47,286 bases of DNA from Actinomycetes bacterium (GCA_046566325.1 JBKHWX010000236.1:1-47286); one strand, 5' to 3'. Counted from the first letter of the stretch, positions 13,508-41,159 are shown. Translations and numbers: made by a program. The notes: a model not told the origin generated them from the letters alone.

Positions 13508-13534
13508 GCACGCGCTCCTGCTTGGACCCTCTCG

Positions 13535-13813: not shown

Positions 13814-13995
13814 ACAGAGCCGCCGTCCGAACTGCCGCTCGGCGTCCTCCGCGAGATGCGCGCGGGCCCGCAGAGCTCACTCCCGTAGCGAGGTCTTTGG
13901 CCCATTCACGAGTGTTGCCACCGCTTGCGAAGCGCCGCCCACACGGCGACTCTTTTCCCCTACTCTGGCTCAGCCGCCGAGGTGAGGACCTTGCC

Positions 13996-16499: not shown

Positions 16500-16544
16500 G
16501 GATCCCTCGGCATCGCCGCTTGCCCGGGCCCGTCCGAAATCCCG

Positions 16545-20991: not shown

Positions 20992-23409
<2,418 letters not shown>

Positions 23410-26367: not shown

Positions 26368-26817
26368 ATGCCTGAGTCAGGAAGCCCGTTCGACTTCGGC
26401 CGCTACGGGGAGCCCGGCGAACCGAATCCTCACGTCGCCCGTTCGCCGTTCTCCGAGCCGACGCAGGACCGGACCTCGGGCTTCTGGTCCACCGCCGACC
26501 AGGCGCCCGCGGCGGTATCCGTCGGCAGGCCGCCCCTCCTCTGGGTCGCGCTGGGACTCGCGACCGCAGTGGTCGGGACGGTGGTGGCGGCCGTCTGGGG
26601 CCGCATGCTGCCGCTCGCCCTGCTGGGGTGGCTGTTCGCCGGCCCGACCGCGATCGGGCTCCTGGCCCTCTTCACCGCACGGGACACGGCGCAGCGCGCG
26701 CGTCCCGTCTACGCAAGCCCCACGTGGGTGTCGCTCGCCTACTGGGCATCGCTCGCCGTCGCCCTGCTCGGCCTGCTGCTCGCCGCGTACCACATCGCGG
26801 ATGTGGTGGCGCGGTGA
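26368..26817 (+). CDS. Small membrane protein, first gene of the tubulin/vWA/GTPase operon. Cytoplasmic N-tail with an SPFDF motif, followed by ~3 TM helices.
   Basis: MPESGSPFDFGRYGEPGEP..., then hydrophobic stretches LLWVALGLATAVVGTVVAAVW, LPLALLGWLFAGPTAIGLLALF and WVSLAYWASLAVALLGLLLAAY. I do not recognise a family. Confidence 0.6.
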   Translation: MPESGSPFDFGRYGEPGEPNPHVARSPFSEPTQDRTSGFWSTADQAPAAVSVGRPPLLWVALGLATAVVGTVVAAVWGRMLPLALLGWLFAGPTAIGLLALFTARDTAQRARPVYASPTWVSLAYWASLAVALLGLLLAAYHIADVVAR

Positions 26818-29543
26818 CCGCGCCTGCTCGCCGAGCTGGGATCGGGCTGCTGACGGTGGCGCTCGCCGTCCTGCTGGCGGTCCCCGGGCTGTCCCTCGAG
26901 CCGGCACTGTCTGTCGAAGCGGTGGACCCGGCTCCGGCGGCCGGCGGCACGCAGACGGACCTCACGCCGGTCCAGCGGTACGGGTCGTGCCTGACGGGGC
27001 ACGGCGAGGGTGACCTCCTCCTGCTGATGGACGAGTCGGGCAGTCTCAAGGACACCGACCCCCACGCCGCCCGGGTCGCCGCGGCCCGCTACCTGCTCGA
27101 ACGGCTCGCTCGCCTGGCCGCGCGGTCGGGCACGACCATCAACGTCGGCATCGCGGGCTTCAGCGACAGCTTCGCGTCCTCGGTCAGCTGGCAGGCGCTC
27201 GACCCCACCTCCCTGCCCACGATCTCCGAGCAGGTGGACGAGTACCGCAACAGGAACGGGGGGAACGACACCGACTACTGGTGGGCGCTGGAGGGCTCCC
27301 GCCGAGAGCTCGCCAAGCAGGCCCACGGAGCGGTGGACCGCTGCCAGGCCATCGCGTGGTTCTCGGACGGGAAGCTCGACGTCGCAGTACCCAGGACGCC
27401 GTGGGGGCGAGCCCACTTCCCCGCCGAGAAGCCGTACGCCGCCGGGGTCGACCTGAGCGCTCCGAACGCGAAACAAGCCGTCACCGAGGCAGCGACCCAG
27501 GCCCTCTGCGAGAAGGGAGGGCTCGCCGACCAGCTGCGGAAGTCGGGGATCCTCGTGTTCGGGGTCGGGCTGGCTCCCGACGCCGCGAGCGACGCCGACT
27601 TCGACCTCATGCAGTCGCTCACCACCGGTACCGACCAGGCCGGCGGCTCCTGCGGGGCGGTCACGAGCCCGCCGCCCGGCGTGTTCTCCCTCGCCCGCGA
27701 CCTCGACGACATGCTGTGGGCCTTCGACGAGCTCGCGGGCTCCGGCCGGACGACGACCGGCGACGTCCACCCGTTCGTCGTCGACTCCTCGATCAGCGCC
27801 GTCCACGTGCTCGGCTCGTCGGGCGTCGAGAACGTCGAGGCCGAGCTGACCCTGCCGTCGGGTCGTGTCGTGTCCCTCGCCCGCACTCCCGACGGCGCCG
27901 GTCGCACCCTCGACCTGGACGGGGTGCACGCCACGTACAGCTGGAAGACCGCACACACGGTCGAGATGGACCTCGCGCGTCCGGACGCCGGCGTGAGCAC
28001 ATGGACGGGCGTCTGGCAGCTTCGGTTCGTCGACCCGGCAGCCGGCTCCGCGGACCCGTCGTCCCGGTCCCGCATCGAGATCAGCGGCGACCTGCAGCCG
28101 AGCTGGTCCGCAGCCGGTACCACCACCCTCCACTCGGGACAGGTGCTCTCCGGCATCAGGTTCGGGCTGGTGAACGGAGCCGGGACGGAGGTGGACCCGT
28201 CGACCGTTCCCGGCGCCGTCACGCTCAGCGCCGTCCTGCTCGACCCGAGCGGCGACGAGGTCGCCGTGACGCCGGGCCAGGAGAAGCCGCAGATCGGGAC
28301 GCCGGTCGACCTCGACCTGACGCACGTGGAGCCCGGGAGGGCAACCCTGCGGCTGACGCTGCTCATGACGACGGCGGACGCCGTGGCACCGGACGGCACC
28401 CCGACACCCGGGACGACGCTCCAGCCCAAGTCCGTCAGTCTCCCCGTCGAGGTGAGGCCGCCCCTCAACTACCCCTCCGTCGCGCCGGTCCTGGACTTCG
28501 GCCTCAACACCGGGCCGGTCCGCAAGCAGCTGCAGCTGAAGGTGTCGGGCCCCGGCTGCGTCTGGTTCGCCGACCTCTCGAAGCCGACGTTCACCACGAC
28601 GCCGGACGGCGTCGGAGGCCTGACCCTGACCTCCGCGGGCTCCCCGTCGAACCCCGCCGGGTGCCTCGAGGTCGCCGACGGGGAGAGCCGAAACCTGCCG
28701 GTCACCCTCAGCACGAAGGAGGGTGGCAACGGCGACGTCAACGGCTCCGTCACGGTGATGGCGGCACCGCTCGGTGAGGTCGAGCAGGCCATCCCGGTCG
28801 AGGTGACGGTCAAGGCCACGCTCGTCAAGCCGCTCAAGCAGATCGTCTACTGGCCCGTCTTCGTCGCCACGTTCCTGCTGGGGGTCGGCATCCCCCTCGG
28901 GATCGCCTACGCCCTGAAGCTCGCCGGCGCGAGGATTCCGCCGAGGCCGCTGTCCTCGCGACGGATCCGCGTCACCGTCGACGGCGGGAGAGTCCTGCGC
29001 GACGGCCGGCCCCTGAGCCTTCGGGACGACGACTTCGTGACCCTGGTGCCCCTCGACCAGGGCGGGAGCCGGCGTCTGAGCGTCGACGGCGTGGAGCTGC
29101 GGACCACCGCGGGCCTCTCGCCGTTCGGCCCCGCCCACGTCGTGGTCTCGGCTCCCGGCCTGCTCGTCGGGTCGAGCGAACCCGTGGGAACCAGGCGCCG
29201 AGGCCCGGAGGGAGAGACAACGCTGCCGCTCGCCGTCCACAACACCTGGGTTCTGCTGCACGACCGGAAGGGCCCCGCGGACGAGGCGGACCTGCTGCTG
29301 CTGGTGTCGGCCGACACCTCGCCGACCCAGCGCGAGGACCTGCTCGAGAGTGCGCGCGGACGCGTCCCGGCCGTCCTCGACGACCTGCGGCGCCGGGCGG
29401 ACGGCGCGGGTACGGGACGACCCGGAGACGACGACGGGACGCCGCCCCCATCCCCGTTCCGGCCGCAGACGCAGACGCGGCCGCCCGCGCCCCAGGCGTC
29501 GTCCCCGTTCGACTTCCCCGACCTCACTGGAGAGGGCCGATGA
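26814..29543 (+). CDS. Bitopic vWA-domain protein: signal/anchor sequence, extracytoplasmic vWA with complete MIDAS, beta-rich domains, one TM helix, and a ~200-aa cytoplasmic tail
   Basis: GTG at 26814 overlaps the upstream stop (GTGA). N-terminus is RRAGIGLLTVALAVLLAVPG. MIDAS motif DESGS at 27030-27044, then NDTDY and FSDG. TM helix IVYWPVFVATFLLGVGIPLGIAYAL at about 28840-28925. C-terminus is ...SSPFDFPDLTGEGR. Confidence 0.8.
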   Translation: MTAPARRAGIGLLTVALAVLLAVPGLSLEPALSVEAVDPAPAAGGTQTDLTPVQRYGSCLTGHGEGDLLLLMDESGSLKDTDPHAARVAAARYLLERLARLAARSGTTINVGIAGFSDSFASSVSWQALDPTSLPTISEQVDEYRNRNGGNDTDYWWALEGSRRELAKQAHGAVDRCQAIAWFSDGKLDVAVPRTPWGRAHFPAEKPYAAGVDLSAPNAKQAVTEAATQALCEKGGLADQLRKSGILVFGVGLAPDAASDADFDLMQSLTTGTDQAGGSCGAVTSPPPGVFSLARDLDDMLWAFDELAGSGRTTTGDVHPFVVDSSISAVHVLGSSGVENVEAELTLPSGRVVSLARTPDGAGRTLDLDGVHATYSWKTAHTVEMDLARPDAGVSTWTGVWQLRFVDPAAGSADPSSRSRIEISGDLQPSWSAAGTTTLHSGQVLSGIRFGLVNGAGTEVDPSTVPGAVTLSAVLLDPSGDEVAVTPGQEKPQIGTPVDLDLTHVEPGRATLRLTLLMTTADAVAPDGTPTPGTTLQPKSVSLPVEVRPPLNYPSVAPVLDFGLNTGPVRKQLQLKVSGPGCVWFADLSKPTFTTTPDGVGGLTLTSAGSPSNPAGCLEVADGESRNLPVTLSTKEGGNGDVNGSVTVMAAPLGEVEQAIPVEVTVKATLVKPLKQIVYWPVFVATFLLGVGIPLGIAYALKLAGARIPPRPLSSRRIRVTVDGGRVLRDGRPLSLRDDDFVTLVPLDQGGSRRLSVDGVELRTTAGLSPFGPAHVVVSAPGLLVGSSEPVGTRRRGPEGETTLPLAVHNTWVLLHDRKGPADEADLLLLVSADTSPTQREDLLESARGRVPAVLDDLRRRADGAGTGRPGDDDGTPPPSPFRPQTQTRPPAPQASSPFDFPDLTGEGR

Positions 29544-29592: not shown

Positions 29593-32500
29593 ATGAGGCG
29601 CTTTCTCGTCGTCGGCTGCGGCGGGTCGGGCGGGGCGACCCTCGCCTATCTCATGGACCAGCTCCGCTCGGACCTCGCCTCGCACGGCGTCGGCTCTCTG
29701 CCGCCTGGCTGGCAGTTCGTCCACATCGACGTCCCGACCGGGTCCGAGCCCGGCCCCGAGGGCCTGTCCAACGTGCAGCAACAAGGGGGCACGTACGTGC
29801 CCACGGGCCCGAACGTCCCGTCCTACAAGGTGCTCGACACCGCCGTGAGCAACACGCTCCGCAGCAAGAACGCGCTCGCCGAGATCGCCACGTGGGCGCC
29901 GAGGGACCCCGACCAGGTGAGCGTGCCGATCGCGGACGGCGCGGGCCAGTACCGGGCGCTCGGGCGGATGATCACGCTCGGCCGGGCCGGCGACGTCCGC
30001 CGAGCACTGACGGCAGCGTGGCAGCGCCTCAACACGGTGGAGACCATCTCGGAGATGGGCCGGCTGCAGAGGGTGCCCGGCCTGGGATCGTTCGACCCTC
30101 AGAACCCGGCGGTGGTCCTGGTCGTCTCGTCGATGGCCGGGGGTGCGGGCGCGTCGATGGCCTTGGACGTCTGCCGCCTCCTCACCCTCGTCGACGGGGT
30201 CGACCCCGGCCGGATAGCGGTGTTCATGGCCAGCCCCGACATCTTCGACGCGCTGCCCGCGGCCGCTCGCAGCGGCGTCCGCGCGAACGCGCTCGCGATG
30301 CTCGGCGAGATCATCGCCGCCCAGAGCGGCTCGGCCCGCGGGCACGACGCGACCGTGATGTCCGCGCTCGGGCAGGGCGGGGGGCAGGGGACCCGGGTCC
30401 CGTTCGCGCGCGTGTTCCCCGTCGGGCGGTTCATCGGCGCCGAGAAGGCACTGTTCGGCGACGGGTCGCAGATGGCCGTCTACCGGGGGCTCGGACGCGC
30501 TCTCGCGGGACTGATGACCAGTGGACAGGCGACCCAGGACTTCGTCGCGTTCGACCTCACCAACGGTGTCGGCCTCAAGAACGAGTCGCGGTACCTGAAC
30601 TGGGGCGTCCAGAACCACCTCGAGGCGCAGTGGGGGTCGTTCGGCTTCGCCAGCCTCAGCATGGGGCGAGACCGCTACGCGGAGTACGCGGCCCAGCGCC
30701 TCGCCCGCAGCACCGTCGACCACCTGCTGAAGGCCCACACGGACCCGGGCAGCACCGCCAGCGAGGCCGAACAGGTGCGCGCTCTCGTCGAGAGCCACTG
30801 GGGGAACGCGTGCCGCCTGCTGGGCCTGCCGGTCGAGACGGCGACCGGCGCCCACGGCAGACCGCAGATGGGGCCCTGGCTGGTCGACGTCGCATTTCCC
30901 AGGGCCACCGCGGAGGAGGCCGCGCGCTCCGTCGTCCGCGAGCACCTGTCGCGACACATCCCTTCGCCCAACGGGATCCACGCCGCCCAGTGGACCCCTG
31001 CCCTCCGCAACCAGCTGGCGCTCCGTCGCTCCGCGGTGCTGACCGCCAGCAACACCGCTGCCTACGCCTGGGCCCACGCCTGGCAGCACGAGCTGCTCCG
31101 CCGGCTCGTCGCGGTCGCGGACGAGGCCGTCACGGCGATGGGCCTGCGCTACGCCGTCACGCTGCTCGGCACCCTTGCCGAGCACGTCCGAGACGTCGTG
31201 ATCCCCGGCGCTGCCGAGCTTGCGCTGCAAGGCCCGGTCGACGTGGTGGCGTTGCCCCCCGAGGTCGAGAACCTGCTCGCCGGGCTGAGGGGGGTGATCA
31301 GCAACGGCCAGCACCTGGTCGACCGGCTCACGGATGGCGTCACGAGGAACGTCCGGGACCAGATCTGGTCACGGGCCGCGCACCTCGTGCAGGGCGTCCT
31401 GGGCTCGTTCCTCGCGGACGTCGTCCAGCCGTTGGAGCAGGCGCTCCGCTCCCCGCTGCTGTCCCTCGAGCAGGAGGTGGCGGCGCCGGTGACCGACCTT
31501 GGGCTGGCGCGGCTGGCCGTCGACCAGTACGGGGCGTGGCCGTCGGACGACGACGCCCTCGTGGCGGCCCGCTTCACCCATGCCAACAACGAGGTCCTGC
31601 TCACGAGCTCAGCGGACTTCCAGCCGCGGTACACGGTGGACATCCAGGCCTCCGCATCCCGGCAGCCGGCGGAGTCCACCACGTTCCCGGACGCGCGGAA
31701 CCGCGCCGTCCGGATGGTCGTCTCCGGCCACTGGCCGACGGTGGGCGGCGCCAAGGAGCCGGGGTCTGCCGTACAGCTGCTGTCGGGATGGAACGCCCCC
31801 GTCTTCGTCACCGCACCCGCCAGCGGCGAGACCCTCGTTCACAGCCGCGCACGTTTCGCCGTCTCCCTCTCGCCCCGCGAGATCCTCGGACGCGCCCGCC
31901 AGTTCGTCGCTCGCCCCGGTGAGTCGTTCTCCACCTTCTGCGAGCTCTCGCTCCGCGACTACATCGCAGGGGGCGACGTCTCGGAACCGGCGCAGGCGCA
32001 GCGCATGGCCGAGGTCGTGGGCAAGTTCCAGCAGGCCCTCAGCCTCGCCCGACCGCTGATCAGCGCCGACCAGACGGCGGTCGAGATGGTCCACGGGGAA
32101 GGGCTGAGCTACCAGTACAAGTTCTCCGAGATCCCCTTCGAGGGGCTGCCAGTGGCCGGCAGCGTGGAGAAGAACCTGTCGGCTCCACTGATCGACCCGA
32201 CGACGAGCACACGGTTCCGGGCCGCGCTGTCCATCGACGACCAGATCAAGCGCATCGACGTCTTCGGGTCCTACCCGAAGTACTCACCGCTCGTGTTCGA
32301 CGCGGTCCTCCAGCCGGTGATCGACCAGTGGAACTCCACGGACGGCAACGGGCACGCGCTCTTCTGGCGGTGGCGCAGGTCGCGGCCGCTGCCCGCGTCC
32401 CTGCCGATGGCGGACAGCGAGCGCCGCGCCATGGTCGCGGGCTGGTTCGTCGGCCAGGTCGTCGGCAGCATCCAGATTCCCGCCCCGCCCTACACGTCAC

Positions 32501-33126
32501 CGGTCCAGGTGTGGGACGACGAGCACTCCCGCTGGGAGGCCTTCCCGCACCCGTTGCTGACGCCCCCGTCCGGCTTCCTCGCGCCCTACGACTGGCTCCC
32601 CGCGGTGCTGGAGTCCGCTCTCCTGGCGATCGCCCGCAGCCATGAGCCGCCGATGATGCACTCGCTGCGCCCGTACCAGCTCCTGCGAGGTCTCTGGGAC
32701 GACAGCGACAACGGCCCGGCGGACGGGATCCTGCAGAGGAGCGGCGTGGGCACGCTCGCCCGATGGCTGACGTCCGGGCTGACGTCCGGCACCGTCGACA
32801 GGCGCCGCGGGGGCGCCTCCAGAGTGCCGGGGGTGGACGCCGCGGCGTCGTTGGACGAGCGCAAGCAGCTGACGGTGGACTGGCTCACCCGCATCCAGTC
32901 GCTGGCGGGGACCCACTTCCTCCCGCCGGGCGAGCACGGTGCCCCCGGCGGCGGTCAGTTCTCGACGGTGACGAACCGGCAGCAGGCCGGTCAGGTGCCG
33001 ATCTTCCGCGATGTCGCCGCCGACGTCTACTGGGCGACCGGCGAGATCATCGAGATCGTCGAGAAGGTGACCGACGTCGAGGCGGGCCCGAGCGTTCCGG
33101 GCCTTCCCGACGGAGGCGTCTTCTGA
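29593..33126 (+). CDS. Giant (1177-aa) tubulin/FtsZ-like protein (Tubulin_2-type N-domain plus an ~800-aa uncharacterised C-region)
   Basis: ATG at 29593 follows GGAAGGA. T1-like loop FLVVGCGGSGGATL (29608-29643), DGAGQYRALGR, and T4-like VVSSMAGGAGASMALD (30127-30162). Confidence 0.75.
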   Translation: MRRFLVVGCGGSGGATLAYLMDQLRSDLASHGVGSLPPGWQFVHIDVPTGSEPGPEGLSNVQQQGGTYVPTGPNVPSYKVLDTAVSNTLRSKNALAEIATWAPRDPDQVSVPIADGAGQYRALGRMITLGRAGDVRRALTAAWQRLNTVETISEMGRLQRVPGLGSFDPQNPAVVLVVSSMAGGAGASMALDVCRLLTLVDGVDPGRIAVFMASPDIFDALPAAARSGVRANALAMLGEIIAAQSGSARGHDATVMSALGQGGGQGTRVPFARVFPVGRFIGAEKALFGDGSQMAVYRGLGRALAGLMTSGQATQDFVAFDLTNGVGLKNESRYLNWGVQNHLEAQWGSFGFASLSMGRDRYAEYAAQRLARSTVDHLLKAHTDPGSTASEAEQVRALVESHWGNACRLLGLPVETATGAHGRPQMGPWLVDVAFPRATAEEAARSVVREHLSRHIPSPNGIHAAQWTPALRNQLALRRSAVLTASNTAAYAWAHAWQHELLRRLVAVADEAVTAMGLRYAVTLLGTLAEHVRDVVIPGAAELALQGPVDVVALPPEVENLLAGLRGVISNGQHLVDRLTDGVTRNVRDQIWSRAAHLVQGVLGSFLADVVQPLEQALRSPLLSLEQEVAAPVTDLGLARLAVDQYGAWPSDDDALVAARFTHANNEVLLTSSADFQPRYTVDIQASASRQPAESTTFPDARNRAVRMVVSGHWPTVGGAKEPGSAVQLLSGWNAPVFVTAPASGETLVHSRARFAVSLSPREILGRARQFVARPGESFSTFCELSLRDYIAGGDVSEPAQAQRMAEVVGKFQQALSLARPLISADQTAVEMVHGEGLSYQYKFSEIPFEGLPVAGSVEKNLSAPLIDPTTSTRFRAALSIDDQIKRIDVFGSYPKYSPLVFDAVLQPVIDQWNSTDGNGHALFWRWRRSRPLPASLPMADSERRAMVAGWFVGQVVGSIQIPAPPYTSPVQVWDDEHSRWEAFPHPLLTPPSGFLAPYDWLPAVLESALLAIARSHEPPMMHSLRPYQLLRGLWDDSDNGPADGILQRSGVGTLARWLTSGLTSGTVDRRRGGASRVPGVDAAASLDERKQLTVDWLTRIQSLAGTHFLPPGEHGAPGGGQFSTVTNRQQAGQVPIFRDVAADVYWATGEIIEIVEKVTDVEAGPSVPGLPDGGVF

Positions 33127-35789
33127 TGACCGGCTCGGGCCGCCGCGACGTCACCGTCCTCCTCGCCACCCCCGGGCTCTCCGACGGCGTCCTCGACGTG
33201 CTGCAGGACCTGTCGGCCGACGGTCTCGTCGACCCGTTCGTCTGGGCGGCCGGAGAAAGGGCCTCCGACACGTCGCTGCCGGCCCTGCGGGTGGAGCGCG
33301 GCACGCTGAGCGGCACGACGGTCGAGGACGAGCTCGTGTCCGCGTCGTACCGGACGGTTCGGCTCGCCGTCCTCGTCTCGCTGCTGCCCGGCGAGCAGCC
33401 CGTCGGCTCGGCGGCGGAGCAGCGGCTGGCCGAGGTGGCGAGCCGGTCGGCAGGAGGTGCGCGGCTCGTCCGCCTCCGGCTGCTGCTCGTCCGCCCGGGG
33501 AGCAAGGCCGACCCGGAGGACGTCGCGCGGACGGGCTGGCACAACGTCCTCCTGTCGCCGGAGGACTCGGCGGGTCCTGGACGAGGCCGGCTGGTGCACG
33601 GCTCGGAACCGGACCAGGTCGACGTCGGCCGCCTTGCGGCGCCGTTGGTCGCCTCCCTGGCCGGGCTGTGGGCGGACGTCGAGCACGGCCCCCTCGACGA
33701 GCAGCGTGTGCTGCCCGGCGAGTACGTCGTCCCGTCGCGTTCGTTCTACCGGCGGCTCCGGGCCGCGTACGTCCAGTCCGAGCTGAGCGGCCGGGTCCTC
33801 TCCTTGGACACGGGCTTCCCGCTTCCCTCCCTGCAGGGCGCGATCACCGTGTACGTGGACGACGTCGAGCTGGCGACGTCCGACATGGCCCGGGCGCTGT
33901 GGACACGCCACCAGGGAGTCCTCAAGGGGCCGAGGACACGGCCCGTCGTCGAGGAGACCGCTCCCGTCTCGATGTGGGCGGCCCTCGGGATGATGTTCCG
34001 GTTCATCTGGGCCGCCCTTCGCGGCGCCCCAGGGCAGTGGTACGCCGCGGTCCTGAACAGGGCCAGCTCCGCGGTGGCGAGCGCGGTGCATGCGACGGTC
34101 TTCGGCAGCGCTCCCGCGGCCTACCAGGTCGTCGTCCGCGGGATGACGGCCGAGGGCCTTCCAGCCGGCTGGAGAGAGCTGGGGGACGCCTCCGACCGGC
34201 TCGACGGCCTGCTGGACGACGAGGCACACGCCCGCCAGCACGAGGTCCGCGGCGACCTGTCCGCGCTGTGGAAGGACTACGTCGCAGGCGCGATGACCTT
34301 GGTCGACGCGGGGGAACGGGCCACGTCGCTGCCTCCTGTCCAGGTCGGGGCGGACCGCGGCGTGCTCCGCCGGGCCAAGGACTGCGTCCCGCCTCCGCGC
34401 GATGCCTTCCGCGACGTCCCTGCGCACCTGGCCGCCGTCACCGGCGTCCGCGACATCGAGCCGTACGACGTGCTCGGCGCCCACAACCTGGACCAGTGCC
34501 TGCGCTCGGGAAGCGAGGACTCGAGCGTCAGCGTCTCTGCAGAGAGGACGGCGCAGCAGCTGCGAGAATGGCGCAGCGACCACCAGCGCAGCTACGCGGT
34601 GCAGGTGGGAAACCAGCTGGGCCAGGCCCTGCTGGCCACAGCCAGGGAGGTCCAGGACCTGCTGAGGACGCTGTCGGACGCCGCGGACGTCACGCAGGTG
34701 GACGACGCAGAGCGGGCGCACCAGCTTCGCGTGGCCCAGCACGTCCGGCTGCTCCTCTGGCTGCTCGTGGGTGTCCTGGTGCTGATCGGCGTTGCGCGCT
34801 GGGCGTCGTGGATCACGCCGCTGCGCACGCTCGTGCTCTGCCTCTCGGCGGTCGCCGCCTGGGCGGTGGCGTCGCTCGTGGTCTTCGTCCGTGGCCAGCG
34901 CGAGCTGTTCCGTGAGCTGCACCGGCGCCGGACGCTCGTCGCGGAGGCGGACGCGGCGAAGGCGAACCTGAAGCAGGCGACGCGGGACGTGCGGCGGCTG
35001 AGCGACGCCTACTCCCAGTTCCTCTCCTGGAGCAGGGTCCTCGGCGTCGTCCTCGACGCTCCGTTCGGACCTCCCCCGCCGCCCGGCTGGCAGGGCAACC
35101 GGACGACCGACGGCCTGCCGCACTGCGCGGACGTCGCCGTCGCACGGCCCGACGAGCAGGCCCTGAGGAGGGCGGCGACCGGTGTGCGGCAGTACGTCTA
35201 CACGGCCGGGTGGCTGCGGGGGCCCTGGCAACAGACGCTGGCCACGGCGTCGACCGGCTCGGGCGGCGACAAGGACCTCGCCGAGGACCTGGAACGCCTT
35301 TTCTCGGACCGGGGCGCCGGGTCGGGGTCGCACCTCGACGTGTGGTCACAACAGCTGGCGCAGAGGGGTCTGGGGCCGAGGACCCGGCAGGAGCACTGGG
35401 CCAGCACGCTGGGGCGGCTGCGGGACGACGAGCGACGGTCCGTGACCGCCGCCGTCCTCGCCCGGGTGCAGAGCGTCCGTCCCGGGTCGCCGGTCGTGTC
35501 CCGCGGCCAGTTCCTGCAGGGCCTGGACACGCTGCCGGTCGGGAACACGGGCCCGGAGGCGTGGGAGGGACCGGTCCTGTTCGAGCCCAGCGCGTTCAGC
35601 CCCGAAGCGCTGGCCGGCACGAGGAACCGGATGGCACGAGCCGTCCTCTCCCGCGCCGAGCACGGCCTCGGACAGGTGGCCGTGCTCACCCAGCTGGGCG
35701 AGGGCCTTCCGGTGCACGACTTCACCTTCACCGGCACGCAGGAACGGGAGAACGTCCGTCGTCCCATAGAGGACGAGTTCGAGTTCTAG
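33126..35789 (+). CDS. 887-aa protein of unknown function with a central TM hairpin
   Basis: ATG at 33126 shares a base with the upstream stop (TGATG). Two adjacent hydrophobic helices, LLLWLLVGVLVLIGVARW and LVLCLSAVAAWAVASLVVFV, at about 34741-34890. I recognise no motifs. Confidence 0.65.
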   Translation: MTGSGRRDVTVLLATPGLSDGVLDVLQDLSADGLVDPFVWAAGERASDTSLPALRVERGTLSGTTVEDELVSASYRTVRLAVLVSLLPGEQPVGSAAEQRLAEVASRSAGGARLVRLRLLLVRPGSKADPEDVARTGWHNVLLSPEDSAGPGRGRLVHGSEPDQVDVGRLAAPLVASLAGLWADVEHGPLDEQRVLPGEYVVPSRSFYRRLRAAYVQSELSGRVLSLDTGFPLPSLQGAITVYVDDVELATSDMARALWTRHQGVLKGPRTRPVVEETAPVSMWAALGMMFRFIWAALRGAPGQWYAAVLNRASSAVASAVHATVFGSAPAAYQVVVRGMTAEGLPAGWRELGDASDRLDGLLDDEAHARQHEVRGDLSALWKDYVAGAMTLVDAGERATSLPPVQVGADRGVLRRAKDCVPPPRDAFRDVPAHLAAVTGVRDIEPYDVLGAHNLDQCLRSGSEDSSVSVSAERTAQQLREWRSDHQRSYAVQVGNQLGQALLATAREVQDLLRTLSDAADVTQVDDAERAHQLRVAQHVRLLLWLLVGVLVLIGVARWASWITPLRTLVLCLSAVAAWAVASLVVFVRGQRELFRELHRRRTLVAEADAAKANLKQATRDVRRLSDAYSQFLSWSRVLGVVLDAPFGPPPPPGWQGNRTTDGLPHCADVAVARPDEQALRRAATGVRQYVYTAGWLRGPWQQTLATASTGSGGDKDLAEDLERLFSDRGAGSGSHLDVWSQQLAQRGLGPRTRQEHWASTLGRLRDDERRSVTAAVLARVQSVRPGSPVVSRGQFLQGLDTLPVGNTGPEAWEGPVLFEPSAFSPEALAGTRNRMARAVLSRAEHGLGQVAVLTQLGEGLPVHDFTFTGTQERENVRRPIEDEFEF

Positions 35790-35851: not shown

Positions 35852-36535
35852 ATGACGACGAGCAGGTTCAGTGCCAGTGCGAGCCAGCGGCTGGATGCGT
35901 TGAAGCAGTGGCGCGAGGACGCGGAGGCCGCGGGCCACGCCGTCCCGTCGTACACGGACCTGCACACCATCGCCTACGACGGGTGGACGGACGGCATCGA
36001 CCTCGCGCGCTGCCAGCCGTGGCGGGACACGATCCTTCACGTCCTTATCCGTGTGGAACGCGGGGACCCGGCACCGTCCCGCTTCCTGCCGGAGCACCTC
36101 CGCTCCCCTAAGCCGACGCTCGGTGGCGGGCAGACCGCACGGCCCCGGCCGCATCAGGAAAGGACGAACAGCCCCAGCATGGCCTCGCCGACCCAGGAGA
36201 TGATGCTCGGCGTCCCGCAGGAGTGGCGGAAGAGGGGTCAGGACCGCAGCGACCCGCTCTTCAACGGCCTGAAGGACTCCAAGCTGCGTGTGATCGTCCG
36301 CAGCCACGACCGCTCGGCCGAGGCGGTCGCCCGCCTGCTGCCCCAGTCCAAGAGCAGGCTGGCACCCGAGATCGCCCGAGTGCTGTCCGAGTTCACGCAA
36401 GGCTTCGACCAGCAGAGCCGCGAGATGCCGGCGAAGCCGGGCTTCTCCCCGTCGACCGCACCGTCTTCGCAGTCCGCACAGGCTTCGCAGCCCAGCGCGG
36501 CTCGGCAGCCCAGCCCGCCTCCCCCTCCAGCCCGC
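35852..36535 (+). CDS. N-terminal segment (frame 2) of an operon protein. It ends in a Ser/Gln/Pro-rich linker where the coding signal moves to another frame.
   Basis: MTTSRFSASASQRLDALKQWREDAEAAGHAVPSYTDLHTIAYDG...SKSRLAPEIARVLSEFTQGFDQQSREMPAKPGFSPSTAPSSQSAQASQPSAARQPSPPPPP. After about 36530 this frame becomes an Arg-rich shadow with no stop until 36949. The end coordinate is approximate. Confidence 0.5.
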
Positions 36536-38382
36536 CTCCGCCGCCGAGCCCGCCTCCGCCGCGGACCGGCTCCACGGCCGGGGCCTCACGACGCTCCGCG
36601 GAAGGGCCGCCGCCGGCTGGCGCACCGCCGTCGGACGAGGTGCCGGCCGAGATCCGGAACACCGCGCCCGAGCCGGCGGACGGGCCGTCCCGCGACCCTT
36701 CGCTGCCCGGTCTCGAGGAGTTCGCCGCGTACGACTTCTCGAGCCCCGACGCCCCTCCCCCGGGACAGCTGCGGGCGTCCGTACGGGAGGAGCAGGTATC
36801 GCTCAGCTGGAAGCCGTACGAGACCGACCAGAGCACCGTTCTCTACCGCGTCGTGTCGAGCGACGAGTTCGAGCCGTACGCGCCGGAGAAGGCCGCGCCG
36901 GTCACCGGCCCCACGACCGGGCTGCGGGCTGTGGACGTCCGCCCTCTGACATCGGCCGTGCGGTTCTACCAGGTGTGGGCGAACGCGGGCAGCGACGTCG
37001 CGGACGCCGTCGAGCAGCAGCCGGTCCTGCATGCCCGGCAGCTGCTCGTCAGCCCGGTGCGCCACCTCGAGCTCCGGGAGGACTCCGGGCGTGTCATCGG
37101 GCAGTGGTCGGTGTTCCCCGGCACCAGCCGCGTGCACGTGTACCGCATCCCGATCGAGAAGGCCGCGACCGGCGGCCTCGACCCCTCGCACCGGATCCTG
37201 CACTTGGAACCGAACCTCGGAGGCTTCGTCGACGGCGACGCGCAGCGCGGGCGTCGGTACGTCTACCAGGTCGCCGCCGAGGCCGTGGTGGACGGCGTGA
37301 CGCTGCTGTCGGCTCCCGTGAGCCAGGACGTGCTCGTGTCCACCGTCCTCGAGCAGGTCCAGGACCTGGACTTCACCTTCCGCGGCGACGCGGACGACGC
37401 CTCGTTCGACCTGACGTGGAGGACGCCGCGTGGGGGACGCGTCGTCGTCTACCGGACGACGACACCGCCGCGCGCGGGGGCGACCGCAGCCTCGATGCCC
37501 GAGCCGGCCCTCGAGCAGGCCTCCCTGGCGTCCGCCGACCGGCTTGCGCACCCGATCAGCGCCCTCGAGGGCGGCCGATCCGTGATGCGTGACGTGCCGT
37601 GGCCCGCGAGCTGGCATCGCGCGTTCTTCACGCCCGTCACGCTCCTCGACGGTCAGGCGCGGGTGGGCAGGACACGGACCGCGGCTCGCAGCGCGCCCGT
37701 CCGCGACGTTCGCATCGTCGAGAGAGTGCAGCAGCAGGTCGTCACCTTCGCGTGGCCCCAGGGTGCCGACGCCGTCCAGGCCTACATCGGGGCGAAGGAC
37801 CAGACCTCTGCTGCAGCGATGAGCGCGCGACCGGTGGAGATCTCGAAGGCGCGCTACGAACAGCTGGGCGGCCTGACCTTCTCCGCACCGCTGCCCCGGC
37901 ACGGGTGCTCGCTGCACCTCGTCTCGGTGACGTTCGAGGGTGGCTCGAAGATCACCGGCGACCCGACGTCGGTCGAGTACCCCGGACTGGTCGAGCTGCG
38001 CTACGACGTCGCGGACAGGCGGAACTTCCTCGGCGCCCCGGTGGCGCTGGCTGTGTCGATCACCTCGGCCGAGCCCCTGGACGTCTGTCCCCCGTTCGTC
38101 CTGGTCCACCGTCAGGACCGGCTGCCCCTCGACGTCCGGGACGGCGTGGCCCTGCAGGTTCAGCGGGAGGACGACCCCGAGAAGCGACGCACGAGCCGGT
38201 TCACACCGACGACGCTCGGCCCGCAGACGGCAGGCGTGGCCTGGCGGGCAGAGGTCAAGGGCCTCACCGGGTTCGTCCGGCTGTTCGTCGACATCGACCC
38301 CGAGCACCTGACGAAAGTCGCCCTGCTCGACCCGGACGTCGGCAAGCTCGTCCTCGGCTCCCGCTCGAGGTTCCAGCTGTGA
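36223..38382 (+). CDS. Protein with FN3/Ig-like beta-sandwich repeats (frame 1). The true start, or the junction with the 35852 segment, lies at about 36500-36640.
   Basis: This is the maximal ORF in the track, and its first ~90-130 codons look non-coding. After that come repeated modules: LRASVREEQVSLSWKPYETDQSTVLYRVV, VRHLELREDSGRVIGQWSVFPGTSRVHVYRI, VQDLDFTFRGDADDASFDLTWRTPRGGRVVVYRT and VRDVRIVERVQQQVVTFAWPQG. No signal peptide. Confidence 0.6.
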   Translation: MAEEGSGPQRPALQRPEGLQAACDRPQPRPLGRGGRPPAAPVQEQAGTRDRPSAVRVHARLRPAEPRDAGEAGLLPVDRTVFAVRTGFAAQRGSAAQPASPSSPPPPPSPPPPRTGSTAGASRRSAEGPPPAGAPPSDEVPAEIRNTAPEPADGPSRDPSLPGLEEFAAYDFSSPDAPPPGQLRASVREEQVSLSWKPYETDQSTVLYRVVSSDEFEPYAPEKAAPVTGPTTGLRAVDVRPLTSAVRFYQVWANAGSDVADAVEQQPVLHARQLLVSPVRHLELREDSGRVIGQWSVFPGTSRVHVYRIPIEKAATGGLDPSHRILHLEPNLGGFVDGDAQRGRRYVYQVAAEAVVDGVTLLSAPVSQDVLVSTVLEQVQDLDFTFRGDADDASFDLTWRTPRGGRVVVYRTTTPPRAGATAASMPEPALEQASLASADRLAHPISALEGGRSVMRDVPWPASWHRAFFTPVTLLDGQARVGRTRTAARSAPVRDVRIVERVQQQVVTFAWPQGADAVQAYIGAKDQTSAAAMSARPVEISKARYEQLGGLTFSAPLPRHGCSLHLVSVTFEGGSKITGDPTSVEYPGLVELRYDVADRRNFLGAPVALAVSITSAEPLDVCPPFVLVHRQDRLPLDVRDGVALQVQREDDPEKRRTSRFTPTTLGPQTAGVAWRAEVKGLTGFVRLFVDIDPEHLTKVALLDPDVGKLVLGSRSRFQL

Positions 38383-41159
38383 GTCCCGGGCCGAGCGACG
38401 CCAGCAGGTTCCCGCAGCTCACCTACACCTCCTTCGACCGCGGCGACGGCCAGGGAGGGTGGCAGGTGAAGGACACGGTCGGCGACCTCGACGGCGCCGA
38501 GGAGACCTACCTCCTGCGGCACGTCAACACGCACGCGCAGACGCTGGGAGCACTGCCGCAGTTCCCCTCTCCGGAGGAGATCAGTGCTCGCTGTCGAACC
38601 CTCGTCTACCGCAACGACCGCGCCGGCTCCGCTGCCTACTGGCACAGCATCCCTGCCGGGCACGACGCGGCCGGCCGGCCGGGCAACGTCTTCATCCACG
38701 CGCTCGTCGACCGCCACCCGGAGGAACCCTTTCCGCCGCTTCGGCCGGTCGAGCTGTGGCGGTCCCCCTTCTGGCTGGTTCCTTTCGGCGGCCCCGAGGT
38801 CCAGCAGGCGACCCTGTCGCCCGAGGTCCCGGCTCCGGGCCACGTGGTCGACCGCGACCGGGTCGTGGAGTTCCTGCTGGACCCCACGGCGTTCAGGCTC
38901 CCCGTCCTCGCGGTACTGCTCGACGCCGTCCGCGCCAGGCTGGACGACGCCGAGCGACCAGGACCACCGGTGGTCCTGGTCGTCCCCAGCGCCGACGAGG
39001 GGGCTCTCTGGCTCGGGGCGGTGTCACAGCTGACGTCCCCGGGGACTGCCCGGCACCTCGGCTTCACCATCGGGGAGCCGCTCGACCGTCTCGTCGCGGA
39101 CCCCGAGCGTCGCGGCGACCTCAACGCCGTGCTCGACAGCGACGGGAGGACGGAGAGCAGCGTCCCGGACCTCCTCCTGGTCGACGTGACCCGTCCGGTG
39201 ACGCTCGGCGAGCTCGACGGAGCCCCGCACCTGACGGCGCAGGGGTCGGCGGTGCCGGTCACCGAGTGGTCGGTGCTGGCGGCGGAGGTCCTGCAGGACC
39301 CGGACGTCGCGAGCAGCCTGCTGGCGTCGCTCGAGGACATGGCTCTGCGCCTGGGCGACCATGACCTCGCCCCGGCACTCCCGCTCGCCCTCACGGTGGC
39401 CGCGACGCCGGAGACGTGGCCGGACGCCGGCGACGAAGCGGTGCGTGTGCTCCACCGCTCGGCGCCGAGCAGGCTGCTCGAGCGGGAGGATCTCGCGGAG
39501 ACGGTCGCGCAGCTGCTGCGCCACACCCTGGGGACGACCGCGGCCAGCGCGTGGGACACGGTGCGGCCGTCCGTGGCCGTTCGGCCCCCCTCGCTGCTGC
39601 TCGGGCTGGCGCTCGGCCTCTACGCCGAACGAGTCCTGCGGGACGAGCACTGGCTCGCGCGGCGGGGGGGAGTACCGCCCGAGGGCCGCGTGCAGGTCGC
39701 GGACCGCGAGCGGGCGCGCCTTGCCGGCGAGCTCAGCGTCGTCCTCCAGCGCCTCGACGAGCTGGCACGAGAACCCGACCGCGCGGGTGAGGGGACGCTG
39801 TTCGACGCGCTGGTCGCGGTCAGGGCCATCGACTTCGCAGACCGCAGCGACCTGTTCGCCGAGGCCGCCCCCACCGTCCGCGAGGATGCCGAGCTCCTGG
39901 TCCAGCGCCTCGTCCTGCCCATGCTGCTCGACCCGCACGCCGGCGATGCCCTCGTCGGCTCGTGCGGAGCGGTCGCCGAGGCCACCCTGGCCGCCTTCTT
40001 CCGCCCCCTCATGTCCCTCGAGCTGCACGGAAGGTCGCCTGGGCATGGGCCCTCGCCCCAGGTGCTCGACTGGTTGTTCCCCTCGGCGCCCGCCTTCCCC
40101 AGCGCGGCGGAGATGGCCCAGTCGTCCGACCTCCCCGACCCGCTCCTGCTGGAGCTAGCGGTCTCGCTGGTCCGCCGCGGACGATCCCTCGCGCAGGGGC
40201 CCGGGGGAACGCCCGAGCAGGACGTCCGGCCGTTCGCGCTCTGGGGGCTGCTCACCACGCACCCCGAGGAGCCGCCCGCGGCTGACGTGGCCGCCTGCTT
40301 CTCCGGTCCGCCGTGGGAGCCGGCGGCGCTCCGGGTGACCCTCGAACACCTCGGACCACGACTGCGGCCCGGCCAGCTGCTGCAGACGGTCCTGGCGGCG
40401 CCGCGAAGCGAGGACCTCAAGGCGTTGTGCGACCTCATCCTGTCCGCACCACCGGGCGAGCGGCTCCCGGCTCCGGGGGCACGGCCGGACGACGCCCGGC
40501 TGCTCGGCGACGCATCGGCGCTTCGGCTGCGGAGCGCGGCGCGGTGGTGGACGCGCTACAACCCCGCGGAGCAGGCTCAGCAGCTGCTGGACCAGTACCT
40601 GGCCCTCGACCGCCGGGGTCTCGGCGCGTTGCTCGCGGCGGATGCCCAGGTGTCGGTGATCGTCGCCCTGGCGCTGAGGGCGATCGTCGCACCGTTCCGG
40701 ACGAGCGTCCCGCGGGGCGAGACGCTCCTCGCGTGGCACCGCGAGGAGCAAGGGGTCCGTGCGGCGGCAGAGCGGCTCGCGTACGCGGTGAGCCGTCGGT
40801 CGAACCTCGATGCCGCGCTGGCGGCGGCCGCACTCGCCACCGACCGCGCCGCGCCGCGGAACGACCTGCGAGAAGCGCCCGTGGTGCGGGCGCTGGCCCC
40901 TCTCGCAGGCGGCTCACGGTCGTTCTTCGGGGAGGCGTTCTCGATCCGCACCTCCTCGATTCCCGAGTCTCGGGACGCCGTCGAACGCGACGTGCTGCTG
41001 CCCGCCGTCACGTCCGCGCTCCAGCGGCTGTTGCAGCTTCGAAACTCGGCCGGCGAGATGGACGAGTTGGAGAAGTTCGCGAAGTCCTGGTGCAAGGAGA
41101 ACGCCGCACCGTCCGGAGGAGGTCTTCATGGCGCGCTCAGCCGTCTGCGGCGGTCCTGA
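38379..41159 (+). CDS. 926-aa GAP1-like (GTPase-associated protein 1-like) protein with a mostly helical C-terminal region
   Basis: GTG at 38379 overlaps the upstream stop (GTGA). N-terminus is FPQLTYTSFDRGDGQGGWQVKDTVG...GRPGNVFIHALV. The family assignment is from memory of the N-terminal motif only. Confidence 0.5.
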   Translation: MSPGPSDASRFPQLTYTSFDRGDGQGGWQVKDTVGDLDGAEETYLLRHVNTHAQTLGALPQFPSPEEISARCRTLVYRNDRAGSAAYWHSIPAGHDAAGRPGNVFIHALVDRHPEEPFPPLRPVELWRSPFWLVPFGGPEVQQATLSPEVPAPGHVVDRDRVVEFLLDPTAFRLPVLAVLLDAVRARLDDAERPGPPVVLVVPSADEGALWLGAVSQLTSPGTARHLGFTIGEPLDRLVADPERRGDLNAVLDSDGRTESSVPDLLLVDVTRPVTLGELDGAPHLTAQGSAVPVTEWSVLAAEVLQDPDVASSLLASLEDMALRLGDHDLAPALPLALTVAATPETWPDAGDEAVRVLHRSAPSRLLEREDLAETVAQLLRHTLGTTAASAWDTVRPSVAVRPPSLLLGLALGLYAERVLRDEHWLARRGGVPPEGRVQVADRERARLAGELSVVLQRLDELAREPDRAGEGTLFDALVAVRAIDFADRSDLFAEAAPTVREDAELLVQRLVLPMLLDPHAGDALVGSCGAVAEATLAAFFRPLMSLELHGRSPGHGPSPQVLDWLFPSAPAFPSAAEMAQSSDLPDPLLLELAVSLVRRGRSLAQGPGGTPEQDVRPFALWGLLTTHPEEPPAADVAACFSGPPWEPAALRVTLEHLGPRLRPGQLLQTVLAAPRSEDLKALCDLILSAPPGERLPAPGARPDDARLLGDASALRLRSAARWWTRYNPAEQAQQLLDQYLALDRRGLGALLAADAQVSVIVALALRAIVAPFRTSVPRGETLLAWHREEQGVRAAAERLAYAVSRRSNLDAALAAAALATDRAAPRNDLREAPVVRALAPLAGGSRSFFGEAFSIRTSSIPESRDAVERDVLLPAVTSALQRLLQLRNSAGEMDELEKFAKSWCKENAAPSGGGLHGALSRLRRS

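Follow-up and report, generated by a model that had tools for sequence, protein, structure and literature searches.

A giant divergent tubulin/FtsZ-like GTPase encoded in a further copy of a known eight-gene actinobacterial system

The stretch of DNA analysed here (the window; 47,286 nucleotides from an Actinomycetes bacterium) has a GC content of 72% and contains many long spurious ORFs on either strand. The ORF at 29593..33126 on the plus strand is genuine; its 1177-aa product, a giant tubulin/FtsZ-like protein, was assigned to the FtsZl1/Tubulin_2 family from Pfam, its orthologues and AF2 models. A ribosome-binding site, AGGAAGGA, lies approximately 8 nt 5' of the ATG at 29593, and the GC3 of this frame is 0.90–0.98 over the entire length. 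The product matched the Pfam family PF13809 (Tubulin_2) over aa 5–375 (29605..30717; E = 6.3e-46; 157.7 bits, cut-off 27), and the match covered profile positions 1–355 of 356. Hundreds of full-length homologues exist. A chance origin of the ORF and its Gly-rich motifs in DNA of 72% GC was ruled out by the GC3, the Pfam match (E = 6e-46), the homologues, and the synteny. NCBI already holds an identical protein annotated as "tubulin-like domain-containing protein", which the initial annotation of this DNA had missed.

The tubulin-like gene is the third in an operon of eight plus-strand genes, in the order 3-TM, membrane vWA, tubulin-like, 2-TM 887-aa, FNIII, GAP1, cytoplasmic vWA, and zinc-ribbon DO-GTPase. 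TM segments were predicted by hydropathy in three of the eight proteins, and at three junctions in the window a start codon overlaps the stop of the preceding gene. The first gene (26368..26817) encodes a small membrane protein of 149 aa with a Pro-rich N-terminus and hydrophobic segments at aa 58–76, 81–99 and 121–139; it had no Pfam match, and its stop overlaps the start of the membrane vWA gene (GTGA). The membrane-bound vWA protein (26814..29543; 909 aa) consists of a signal/anchor (aa 5–23), an extracytoplasmic vWA domain carrying the MIDAS motif DESGS (aa 72–76), a stretch of approximately 360 aa without domain assignment (aa ~310–670), a TM segment (aa 682–700), and a cytoplasmic tail of approximately 200 aa. 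Its VWA_2 and VWA matches (E = 2e-4 to 3e-4; 22.5 bits) lie just under the gathering score. Immediately after the tubulin-like gene, 33126..35789 encodes the 887-aa 2-TM protein, in which large domains lie to both sides of a central TM hairpin (aa 539–557 and 570–588); no Pfam family matched it. Its gene is translationally coupled to the tubulin-like gene. The protein is a candidate membrane tether.

The cytoplasmic FNIII-repeat protein (35852..38382) was assigned from a weak fn3 match (E = 0.003; 18 bits, under the cut-off of 25) and the alignment of orthologues. It has an N-terminal helical part, which may be HRDC-like, and a Pro/Ser-rich linker. Pfam HRDC did not match the window copy and gave E = 0.17 with one orthologue. 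The frame is broken at approximately 36515–36540 in the window, where the alignment of orthologues switches between two frames; in eight of eight related loci the protein is one ORF of 784–859 aa. The N2-type GAP1 (GTPase-associated protein 1; 38379..41159; 926 aa) matched PF20013 GAP1-N2 (E = 1.5e-19; 70.8 bits) and PF20014 GAP1-M (E = 1.1e-6; 29.3 bits), each against a cut-off of 24. The DO-GTPase (42266..43414; 382 aa) matched PF19993 DO-GTPase2 (28.7 bits; cut-off 27). Its N-terminus holds two CxxC...CxxC zinc ribbons (CPHC..C..C and C..C..C..C), and its GTPase motifs read GARATGKS (Walker A), DVAGE (Walker B) and SKFD. Between them, 41223..42269 encodes a cytoplasmic vWA-like protein of 348 aa, recognised from its sequence and a MIDAS-like VAVDTSAS. 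The window copy had no Pfam match; in a mixed set of 84 sequences (28 orthologues each of the 348-aa vWA-like, FNIII and 2-TM proteins), eight matched PF10138 vWA-TerF-like, the matching members not being identified by protein. These downstream GAP1, vWA and DO-GTPase genes, missed by the initial annotation, show that the protein belongs to a system already reported in 2020. Given this known system and the NCBI entry, the novelty is less than that annotation implied.

The N-terminal domain carries three Gly-rich loops, whose conservation was assessed in 59 orthologues and in 118 cluster representatives (35–61% identity). The T1-like loop, VVGCGGSGGATL (aa 6–17; 29608..29643), follows strand S1 and leads to helix H1 in the AF2 model. 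Its G8-C-G-G-S-G-G14 residues are at least 90% conserved among the orthologues, and the pattern GxGGSG[GA]xT is kept in all 111 representatives having the N-terminus. In the T3-like loop, DGAGQYRALGR (aa 115–125; 29935..29967), G116, A117, G118, Q119, R121, G124 and R125 are invariant in the 59 orthologues. Among the 117 representatives with the position, G116, A117 and G118 occur in 116, Q119 in 112, and R121, G124 and R125 in all. By-eye comparison with GAGANPEVGR of E. coli FtsZ revealed the same GAG-x5-GR spacing. The T4-like loop, SSMAGGAGASMALD (aa 179–192; 30127..30168), reads AGGAGAS at the place of the tubulin/FtsZ GGGTG(S/T)G, as the initial annotation had noticed. The loop does not match the signature [SAG]GGTG[SA]G: it keeps three invariant Gly, but has Ala in place of Thr (A, S or T in the family) and Ser or Gly in place of the last Gly. 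S180, G183, G184 and G186 are invariant; in the 59 orthologues so are M181, A182, A187, S188, M189 and D192. Of the 118 representatives, 56 have A at position 185, 50 have S and 12 have T, so that relatives often retain a hydroxyl residue. The patterns GxGGSG[GA]xT, GAGQxRxxGR and SxAGG[AST]G[AS][SG] occur in essentially every representative having the position. All three loops had been read from the DNA at the outset; they lie where they were placed and are conserved in both the orthologues and the 118 representatives.

A further invariant motif, G351...G358-R-[D/E]-R-Y362...Y365...Q368-R369 (30643..30699), was found by family conservation. Its G358-R-[D/E]-R-Y part stands at the end of a segment (aa 322–368) that is conserved despite low model confidence (pLDDT <50). 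We infer that this motif could be an inter-subunit (T7/H8-like) element, and that N324 and G358-R-[D/E]-R-Y may supply the T7 catalytic residue.

The AF2 model of the N-domain had a mean pLDDT of 71 and a pTM of 0.73. A Foldseek search with it returned FtsZ/CetZ structures as 48 of the 50 best PDB matches, each with a probability of at least 0.98 and up to 1.0, with E-values from 5e-4 and TM scores of only 0.3–0.44. Given the low TM scores and the moderate pLDDT, the fold match is partial. The structure search agrees with the tubulin/FtsZ-like fold first proposed for this protein. Among the tubulin-family profiles, PF13809 matched strongly (E = 6e-46), in line with the proposal, and PF00091 (Tubulin) had no match to the 1177-aa protein at E ≤ 1. 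With the loops conserved in orthologues as well, each of the three checks named in the initial annotation was run and none spoke against its reading. No canonical FtsZ C-terminal beta-sheet domain appeared in the AF2 model, and profile alignment with E. coli FtsZ (hhalign) gave only a weak H7-like match of 19 columns (E = 0.11).

Beyond aa 375, neither Pfam nor NCBIfam gave a significant match. The AF2 model of this part (aa 391–1177) predicted a long antiparallel alpha-helical bundle at aa ~464–630 (30982..31482), with helices of approximately 53, 27 and 59 residues (model residues 74–126, 128–154 and 182–240; pLDDT 93–97). The bundle has a non-significant likeness to ClyA/AhlC-type toxins and Mx/dynamin stalks (probability ≤0.18). 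A mixed alpha/beta region follows at aa ~655–1170 (31555..33102), in which RRSRPLxASLPM, FPxPLLTPPS and YDWLPAVLES, among other motifs, are strongly conserved. The C-terminal region had no PDB or BFVD fold match at E ≤ 0.001; the approximately 800 residues that the initial annotation could not assign thus stay unassigned by Pfam, NCBIfam and fold search. The protein ends in the peptide LPDGGVF (33103..33123). Close orthologues end in [I/M]PxGGxF, and of 238 full-length relatives 155 have Phe as the terminal residue. Predicted to be disordered (pLDDT <50 for the last 13 residues), the tail is possibly a docking peptide.

The eight-gene order is kept in approximately 70 of 80 actinobacterial loci. 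Relative to the tubulin-like gene, the syntenic partners in the 80 related loci are the 3-TM (70), membrane vWA (73), 2-TM (79), FNIII (73), GAP1 (71), cytoplasmic vWA (68) and DO-GTPase (69) genes. No part of the system is better conserved than the GTPase domain (57–64% identity versus 27–49% for most others), which fits a constrained enzymatic core. In the window the operon is flanked by housekeeping genes; in related loci the flanks are heterogeneous, and the upstream neighbours vary between genomes.

From these results, the ORF almost certainly encodes an FtsZl1/Tubulin_2-type tubulin-like GTPase within an eight-gene membrane-associated GAP1-N2/DO-GTPase system, which corresponds to the actinobacterial tubulin theme that Kaur et al. 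(2020) described. The gene is a real, very divergent tubulin/FtsZ-like GTPase gene and an ordinary further copy of a known system; computational descriptions of the family, the giant architecture and the eight-gene operon already date from 2010 and 2020. With identity and mechanism blended and the weight on identity, we consider the overall account probable. That the cellular role of Tubulin_2 proteins is not established, as the initial annotation held, agrees with PMC2875224, PMC9871819 and PMC7159879, and no experimental study of any family member was found in the literature searched.

As for the mechanism, the tubulin-like protein is most likely a nucleotide-dependent assembling or scaffold subunit, membrane-tethered and gated by a DO-GTPase/GAP1 switch. 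The N-domain would bind GTP via the conserved T1-, T3- and T4-like loops and drive nucleotide-dependent self-assembly or scaffolding. As no canonical FtsZ C-terminal beta-sheet domain is predicted, assembly would proceed via a non-canonical interface, for which the long helical bundle is one candidate and the invariant G-R-[D/E]-R-Y loop another. The translationally coupled 2-TM protein may be what anchors the polymer or scaffold to the membrane. Recruitment of the tubulin-like protein by neighbouring membrane proteins, as the initial annotation suggested, is plausible; the next gene encodes a 2-TM protein whose start lies ≤5 nt from the tubulin-like stop in 75 of 79 loci. The zinc-ribbon DO-GTPase and GAP1 would form the GTP switch that gates the polymer or scaffold, and the extracytoplasmic vWA ectodomain and the cytoplasmic FNIII protein may be ligand or peptide binders coupled to it. 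Taken as a whole, from GTP-driven assembly and the 2-TM tether to the DO-GTPase/GAP1 gating and the vWA/FNIII binders, this mechanism is tentative.

What such a scaffold would serve can be read in more than one way. Kaur et al. (2020), who described these loci as conflict systems, predict defence against invaders. The operon would then act in immunity or abortive infection: a phage or other invader would be sensed by the vWA and FNIII proteins, DO-GTPase and GAP1 would set the threshold, and the tubulin-like protein would polymerise as the effector, leading to physical containment, dominant-negative interference or cell suicide. The locus fits that published description (PMC7159879), the varying upstream neighbours fit mobility, and the distribution looks patchy, with 183 confirmed loci among the genomes of 185,579 species in a scan bounded by its search patterns. 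However, PADLOC matched none of the eight proteins, no phage copy of the tubulin-like protein was found, and the only two plasmid copies were on Rhodococcus megaplasmids. Defence or mobile-element genes were absent from the flanks in the window and did not dominate those of related loci, and no component is evidently hypervariable, the FNIII protein being not obviously more variable than the others. Experimental validation was not found in the literature searched, and we regard this reading as possible and somewhat doubtful. The chromosomal setting with housekeeping flanks, the strongly conserved gene order and tight coupling, and the membrane location of three of the eight proteins, one with an extracytoplasmic vWA domain, instead favour a non-immune cytoskeletal complex, constitutive or stress-induced, that would shape membranes, vesicles or the cell wall. 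This was put forward by Makarova and Koonin (2010), who predicted a membrane or envelope remodelling role for FtsZl1 (PMC2875224), and the helical bundle loosely, not significantly, recalls dynamin/Mx stalks. Yet most actinobacteria are without the system, which therefore is not a core function, and elsewhere GAP1/DO-GTPase partners go together with effectors typical of conflict systems, SLATT pores for example (PMC7159879). Experimental support was likewise not found in the literature searched, and we consider a remodelling machine rather unlikely.

A further reading is a non-polymerising scaffold, with the tubulin fold kept solely as a nucleotide-binding or even nucleotide-free adaptor and the large C-terminal region doing the work. 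It would accommodate the change of the T4 signature to AGGAGAS, the prediction of neither a C-terminal activation domain nor a clear T7 loop, and the earlier suspicion that FtsZl1 lacks filament-forming elements (PMC2875224). In contrast, strong purifying selection acts on every phosphate-binding loop throughout the family, and no module of the operon is as conserved as the N-domain. Moreover, A185 is replaced by S or T in 62 of 118 representatives, so that the pocket looks functional. We consider a pseudo-GTPase scaffold improbable. Alternatively, FtsZl1 might be a hybrid assembly machine that combines a GTPase head lacking the T7/C-domain interface, a stalk, a docking tail and a ligand-triggered switch. 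Polymerisation would involve a dynamin-like helical stalk together with the invariant G-R-[D/E]-R-Y loop, the co-translated 2-TM protein would be the docking site of the C-terminal [I/M]PxGGxF peptide, and DO-GTPase/GAP1 would activate it at the membrane upon ligand binding by the extracytoplasmic vWA ectodomain. This proposal is a long shot; if true, it would represent a new assembly mode of the tubulin superfamily for signal-triggered membrane containment or immunity in actinobacteria.

Finally, we compared the window protein and its operon with known systems. TubZ, PhuZ, BtubAB and eukaryotic tubulin belong to the same superfamily, and some of them use extended C-terminal tails for assembly; none was among the best 50 PDB matches of the N-domain model. 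The best structural matches were FtsZ/CetZ (e.g., 7ojb, 4dxd and 4b45_A), which have in common with the window protein the order S1-T1-H1 and S4-T4-H4 and the T3 GAG-x5-GR, with a weak match at H7. They differ from it in sequence (8–14% identity), in its T4 AGGAGAS, in the lack of a predicted beta-sheet C-domain and in its 800 extra aa; unlike FtsZ, the window protein is not a division protein. The closest operon is the actinobacterial tubulin theme among the GAP1-N2 DO-GTPase "conflict systems" described by Kaur, Burroughs, Iyer and Aravind (2020; PMC7159879). Both have a single tubulin gene with an uncharacterised C-terminal helical domain, a GAP1 with N2 and M domains, one TRAFAC-type DO-GTPase that has a Walker-B glutamate and a pair of zinc ribbons at its N-terminus, and a membrane-bound vWA protein. 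The cytoplasmic FNIII protein of the theme has a putative counterpart in the window, given the weak fn3 match. The "membrane-bound vWA + beta-strand-rich" component of that description resembles the 909-aa protein, a likeness read from the vWA domain, the signal/anchor and the TM segment. The theme has HRDC on one FNIII protein, whereas Pfam gave no HRDC match in the window copy, and GAP1 lies upstream of the GTPase in the window and downstream in the theme. The 3-TM, 887-aa 2-TM and cytoplasmic vWA proteins, strictly syntenic here, are unnamed for the tubulin theme in the text of PMC7159879. The FtsZl1 family of Makarova and Koonin (2010), found in operons with vWA proteins and divergent GTPases and here equated with Pfam Tubulin_2 (PF13809), was described as missing T6-H7 and the C-domain, with filament-forming elements suspected to be absent (PMC2875224). 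The window protein shares its full-length profile match, the conserved T1 and T4 loops with family-specific inserts between them, and the lack of a recognisable FtsZ/tubulin C-terminal domain; in either operon, vWA proteins and several membrane proteins accompany a divergent P-loop GTPase. The FtsZl1 extension is a coiled-coil (PMC2875224), whereas that of the window protein is longer and comprises a helical bundle and, after it, an alpha/beta region. We found no essential difference from FtsZl1, of which the window protein is an actinobacterial sub-type of approximately 1180 aa.

Since the window is 72% GC and long spurious ORFs are abundant in it, we called genes by third-position GC (GC3). 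The ORF of the tubulin-like protein (29593-33126, + strand) had a GC3 of 0.90-0.98 along its entire length. Its ATG at 29593 is preceded by a AGGAAGGA ribosome-binding site, and the ORF ends at 33126, giving a product of 1177 aa. The three motifs from which the initial annotation had read a giant divergent tubulin/FtsZ-like protein were located at aa 6-17, 115-125, and 179-192. PF13809 (Tubulin_2) matched over its whole profile at aa 5-375 (E = 6.3e-46; 157.7 bits vs. a cut-off of 27), and PF00091 gave no match at E ≤ 1. The same annotation had been unable to assign about 800 further residues. This was confirmed, as beyond PF13809 there was no Pfam match at E ≤ 1 and NCBIfam returned only noise.

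An identical protein is already public in NCBI, annotated as tubulin-like. Mycobacteriaceae, Rhodococcus, Propionibacteriaceae, Microlunatus, Williamsia, Arthrobacter, and Microbacteriaceae have full-length relatives of ~1150-1200 aa with ~50% identity. With the N-domain as query, an exhaustive phmmer search (1.84 billion searched) returned 809 cluster representatives at E ≤ 1e-3, 315 of them at E ≤ 1e-30. Most of the best 150 matches listed were 1100-1240 aa long, and the shorter sequences among these 150 may be fragments. Conservation was assessed in 59 orthologues and in 118 representatives reaching down to ~35% identity. The Gly loops were kept in both sets: the T1 loop as GxGGSG[GA]xT, the T3 loop as GAGQxRxxGR, and the T4 loop as SxAGG[A/S/T]G[A/S][S/G]...D192. 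Also conserved were D46 after strand S2, the single residues N232, E239, N324, and G351, and the loop motif G358-R-[D/E]-R-Y362. Compared by eye, the T3 loop has the same GAG-x5-GR spacing as GAGANPEVGR of E. coli FtsZ. Because the T4 pattern is conserved across the 59 orthologues and 118 representatives, the modified T4 loop pointed out in the initial annotation is a family trait. Its central residue was A in 56, S in 50, and T in 12 of the 118 representatives; therefore, many relatives (62/118) retain the hydroxyl residue found in canonical GGGTG. D321, considered as the T7 catalytic residue, does not vary among close orthologues, yet just 59 of the 118 wider representatives have it; we therefore dropped it and take N324 and [D/E]360 as candidates instead.

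We then turned to the predicted structure of the N-domain. The AlphaFold2 model of aa 1-410 had a mean pLDDT of 71 and a pTM of 0.73, with strands alternating with helices and the Gly loops at the C-termini of strands. In a Foldseek search of the PDB, FtsZ/CetZ structures made up 48 of the top 50 matches, each with a probability of at least 0.98; tubulin, TubZ, and PhuZ were absent from these 50. The fold match is partial (E from 5e-4, TM 0.3-0.44, RMSD 7-10 Å, identity 8-14%), and a beta-sheet C-terminal (activation) domain was not predicted in this model. The segment aa 322-368 was modelled at low confidence, yet it contains invariant residues, including the GR[D/E]RY loop. A PDB sequence search with the family profile gave no meaningful match (best E = 0.035, a designed helical bundle), and hhalign of the profile against E. 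coli FtsZ aligned only 19 columns (aa 291-309 to helix H7, E = 0.11). Sequence comparisons thus give no significant link to FtsZ, in agreement with Makarova and Koonin, who were unable to locate T6-H7 and the C-domain in FtsZl1 (PMC2875224). The PF13809 match, the conserved loops, and the FtsZ/CetZ fold match bear out the observation and family assignment of the initial annotation: the N-terminal part of the protein is a nucleotide-binding head of tubulin fold, the phosphate-binding loops of this head are conserved, and nucleotide binding is predicted.

The model of the remaining part (aa 391-1177) had a pLDDT of 81. It comprises a long helical bundle at aa ~464-630, modelled very confidently, and, C-terminal to it, a mixed alpha/beta region in which motifs are strongly conserved. 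The C-terminal 787 aa gave no fold match in the PDB or BFVD at E ≤ 0.001. Likeness to the ClyA/AhlC toxins and to the Mx stalk was rejected as non-significant (probability ≤ 0.18). For the C-terminal ~800 aa as modelled, neither the solved nor the predicted viral structures include a fold relative. A stretch predicted to be disordered ends in the tail LPDGGVF (aa 1171-1177; 33103-33123), which reads [I/M]PxGGxF in close orthologues; the terminal Phe occurs in 155 of 238 relatives. By analogy with the FtsZ C-terminal peptide, this tail may be a docking peptide.

The tubulin-like gene is the third of eight genes on the + strand. It is preceded by genes for a small 3-TM membrane protein (26368-26817) and a membrane vWA protein (26814-29543); the latter has a signal/anchor and an extracytoplasmic vWA domain with the MIDAS motif DESGS, followed by a ~360-aa region without assignment, one TM helix, and a cytoplasmic tail. 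Downstream lie the genes for an 887-aa protein with a TM hairpin in its centre (2-TM protein, 33126-35789), a cytoplasmic FNIII protein (35852-38382), GAP1 (38379-41159; PF20013 GAP1-N2 and PF20014 GAP1-M), a cytoplasmic vWA-like protein with a DTSAS motif (vWA2, 41223-42269), and a DO-GTPase (42266-43414; PF19993, two zinc ribbons, GARATGKS, DVAGE). At three junctions, the start codon of one gene overlaps the stop codon of the gene before it, and a fourth shares one base. NCBIfam returned nothing for the partner proteins, and no Pfam family was found for the 2-TM protein, 28 orthologues included. PF10138 (vWA-TerF-like) matched 8 of 84 sequences in a set that pooled orthologues of the cytoplasmic vWA-like, FNIII, and 2-TM proteins (28 each).

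By tblastn, the gene order was identical in about 70 of 80 related loci. The tubulin-like gene was found in 79-80 of these, the 2-TM gene in 79, the membrane vWA and FNIII genes in 73 each, GAP1 in 71, the 3-TM gene in 70, the DO-GTPase in 69, and the cytoplasmic vWA gene in 68; contig ends account for most of the missing components. The tubulin-like gene is tightly coupled to the 2-TM gene, with at most 5 nt from stop to start in 75 of 79 loci. No other module of the operon is as conserved as the tubulin head (57-64% identity vs. 27-49% for most other parts). The DUF6328, PEBP, and YbaK-like genes upstream in the window were absent from all 80 loci and are therefore placed outside the system. 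Several loci differed in composition. No GAP1 match lies between the FNIII and vWA2 genes in L023, and vWA2 follows the GAP1 match by ~1.1-1.4 kb in L029, L044, and L053, vs. the usual ~2.7 kb; GAP1 may be lost or truncated in these four. A gene for a DUF4190 membrane protein of ~210-225 aa, on the same strand and directly upstream of the 3-TM gene, was present in 21 of 107 upstream ORFs scanned (at ~4300-5600 in L003, L031, L035, L042, L045, L054, L057, L058, L064, and others). These loci are mostly Mycobacterium-type, and the window is without this gene, whose product may be a lineage-specific ninth component.

The FNIII gene of the window is read in two frames, with the break at ~36515-36540. 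The frame switch in the orthologue alignments falls in a repetitive Pro-rich, C-rich linker, and the gene was a single ORF (784-859 aa) in all 8 related loci compared. The break reflects either an indel in the MAG assembly or a pseudogene; in the latter case, the system would be inactive in this genome. Fn3 stayed below the Pfam threshold in the product, and Pfam detected no HRDC.

Whether the operon belongs to a defence island was judged from its surroundings. No PADLOC match was obtained for the tubulin-like protein or its seven partners, no defence or mobile-element genes were seen in the flanks of the window, and such genes did not dominate the flanks of the related loci. The window flanks are housekeeping (PEP synthase and its regulator, DUF294 nucleotidyltransferases, a sedolisin-like peptidase, metabolic enzymes), and in other genomes the genes upstream of the operon differ from one another and are for the most part housekeeping. 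No phage copy was found, and the only plasmid copies were on two Rhodococcus megaplasmids. All of this argues against a defence island. The apparently patchy distribution and the varying flanks speak for a non-core, possibly mobile system.

Some features of the flanks were also recorded. The sedolisin-like peptidase gene (43416-45098, - strand; Pro-kumamolisin activation domain and Peptidase_S8) is convergent with the operon, its stop codon starting 2 nt past that of the DO-GTPase. A PEP synthase/PPDK-type enzyme (20992-23409, -) adjoins its Kinase-PPPase (PSRP-type) regulator (23473-24309, -); the two form an ordinary metabolic pair immediately upstream of the region. Two paralogous cNMP-binding/CBS/DUF294 putative nucleotidyltransferase genes lie near each other (16545-18434 and 19090-20925, both -). 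The region 13500-16500 has a lower GC (0.67), and its short ORFs 14274-14627 (-) and 14826-15476 (-) have an unusually low first-position GC (0.46-0.49) with high GC3; searches of this region for Rfam families and tRNAs were negative. The tRNA-Leu(GAG) gene at 10292-10377 is the sole RNA gene in the window.

We propose that the tubulin head would bind GTP and thereby drive assembly or scaffolding. As neither a canonical C-domain nor a clear T7 loop is predicted, the subunits would have to meet through a non-canonical interface, for which the GR[D/E]RY loop and the helical bundle are candidates. The 2-TM protein would tether the assembly to the membrane, the DO-GTPase/GAP1 pair would gate it, and the vWA and FNIII modules would bind ligands. 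The output may be defence or envelope remodelling.

The scaffold or filament GTPase at the membrane suggested in the initial annotation is a reasonable reading that mirrors published predictions. Tubulin_2 is the Pfam model of the "FtsZ-like" proteins of Makarova and Koonin (PMC9871819), whose FtsZl1 operons contain vWA genes, divergent P-loop GTPases, and membrane proteins and for which membrane remodelling was proposed (PMC2875224). The literature we found on FtsZl1, Tubulin_2, DO-GTPase, and GAP1 consists of computational papers, with no experimental study; for this family, described in 2010, GTP binding and polymerisation with membrane remodelling, or a role in immunity, are candidate functions. 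A structure or a phenotype would mark the family out as a new branch of tubulin-superfamily mechanics. The system is also carried by culturable Rhodococcus, Mycolicibacterium, and Propionibacteriaceae, which are better experimental entry points than the MAG copy. The protein and operon are already known computationally, and the protein is already annotated; what the window holds is a further MAG copy, frameshifted in part, of a known system and no new kind of object. Our small additions are the conserved eight-gene order, the coupled 2-TM junction, the invariant GR[D/E]RY loop, and the family T4 pattern AGG[A/S/T]G[A/S][S/G]. Kaur et al. 2020 described GAP1-N2 DO-GTPase systems, including an actinobacterial tubulin theme, and predicted a conflict system that is switched by GTP and has effectors assembling into cytoskeleton-like structures (PMC7159879). 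That theme has a single tubulin, to which an uncharacterised alpha-helical domain is fused C-terminally, and two FNIII-repeat proteins, one with an HRDC fusion (PMC7159879). Except for HRDC and the sub-threshold fn3, the window locus fits this theme feature by feature, and its operon contains three genes beyond those named in the published text.
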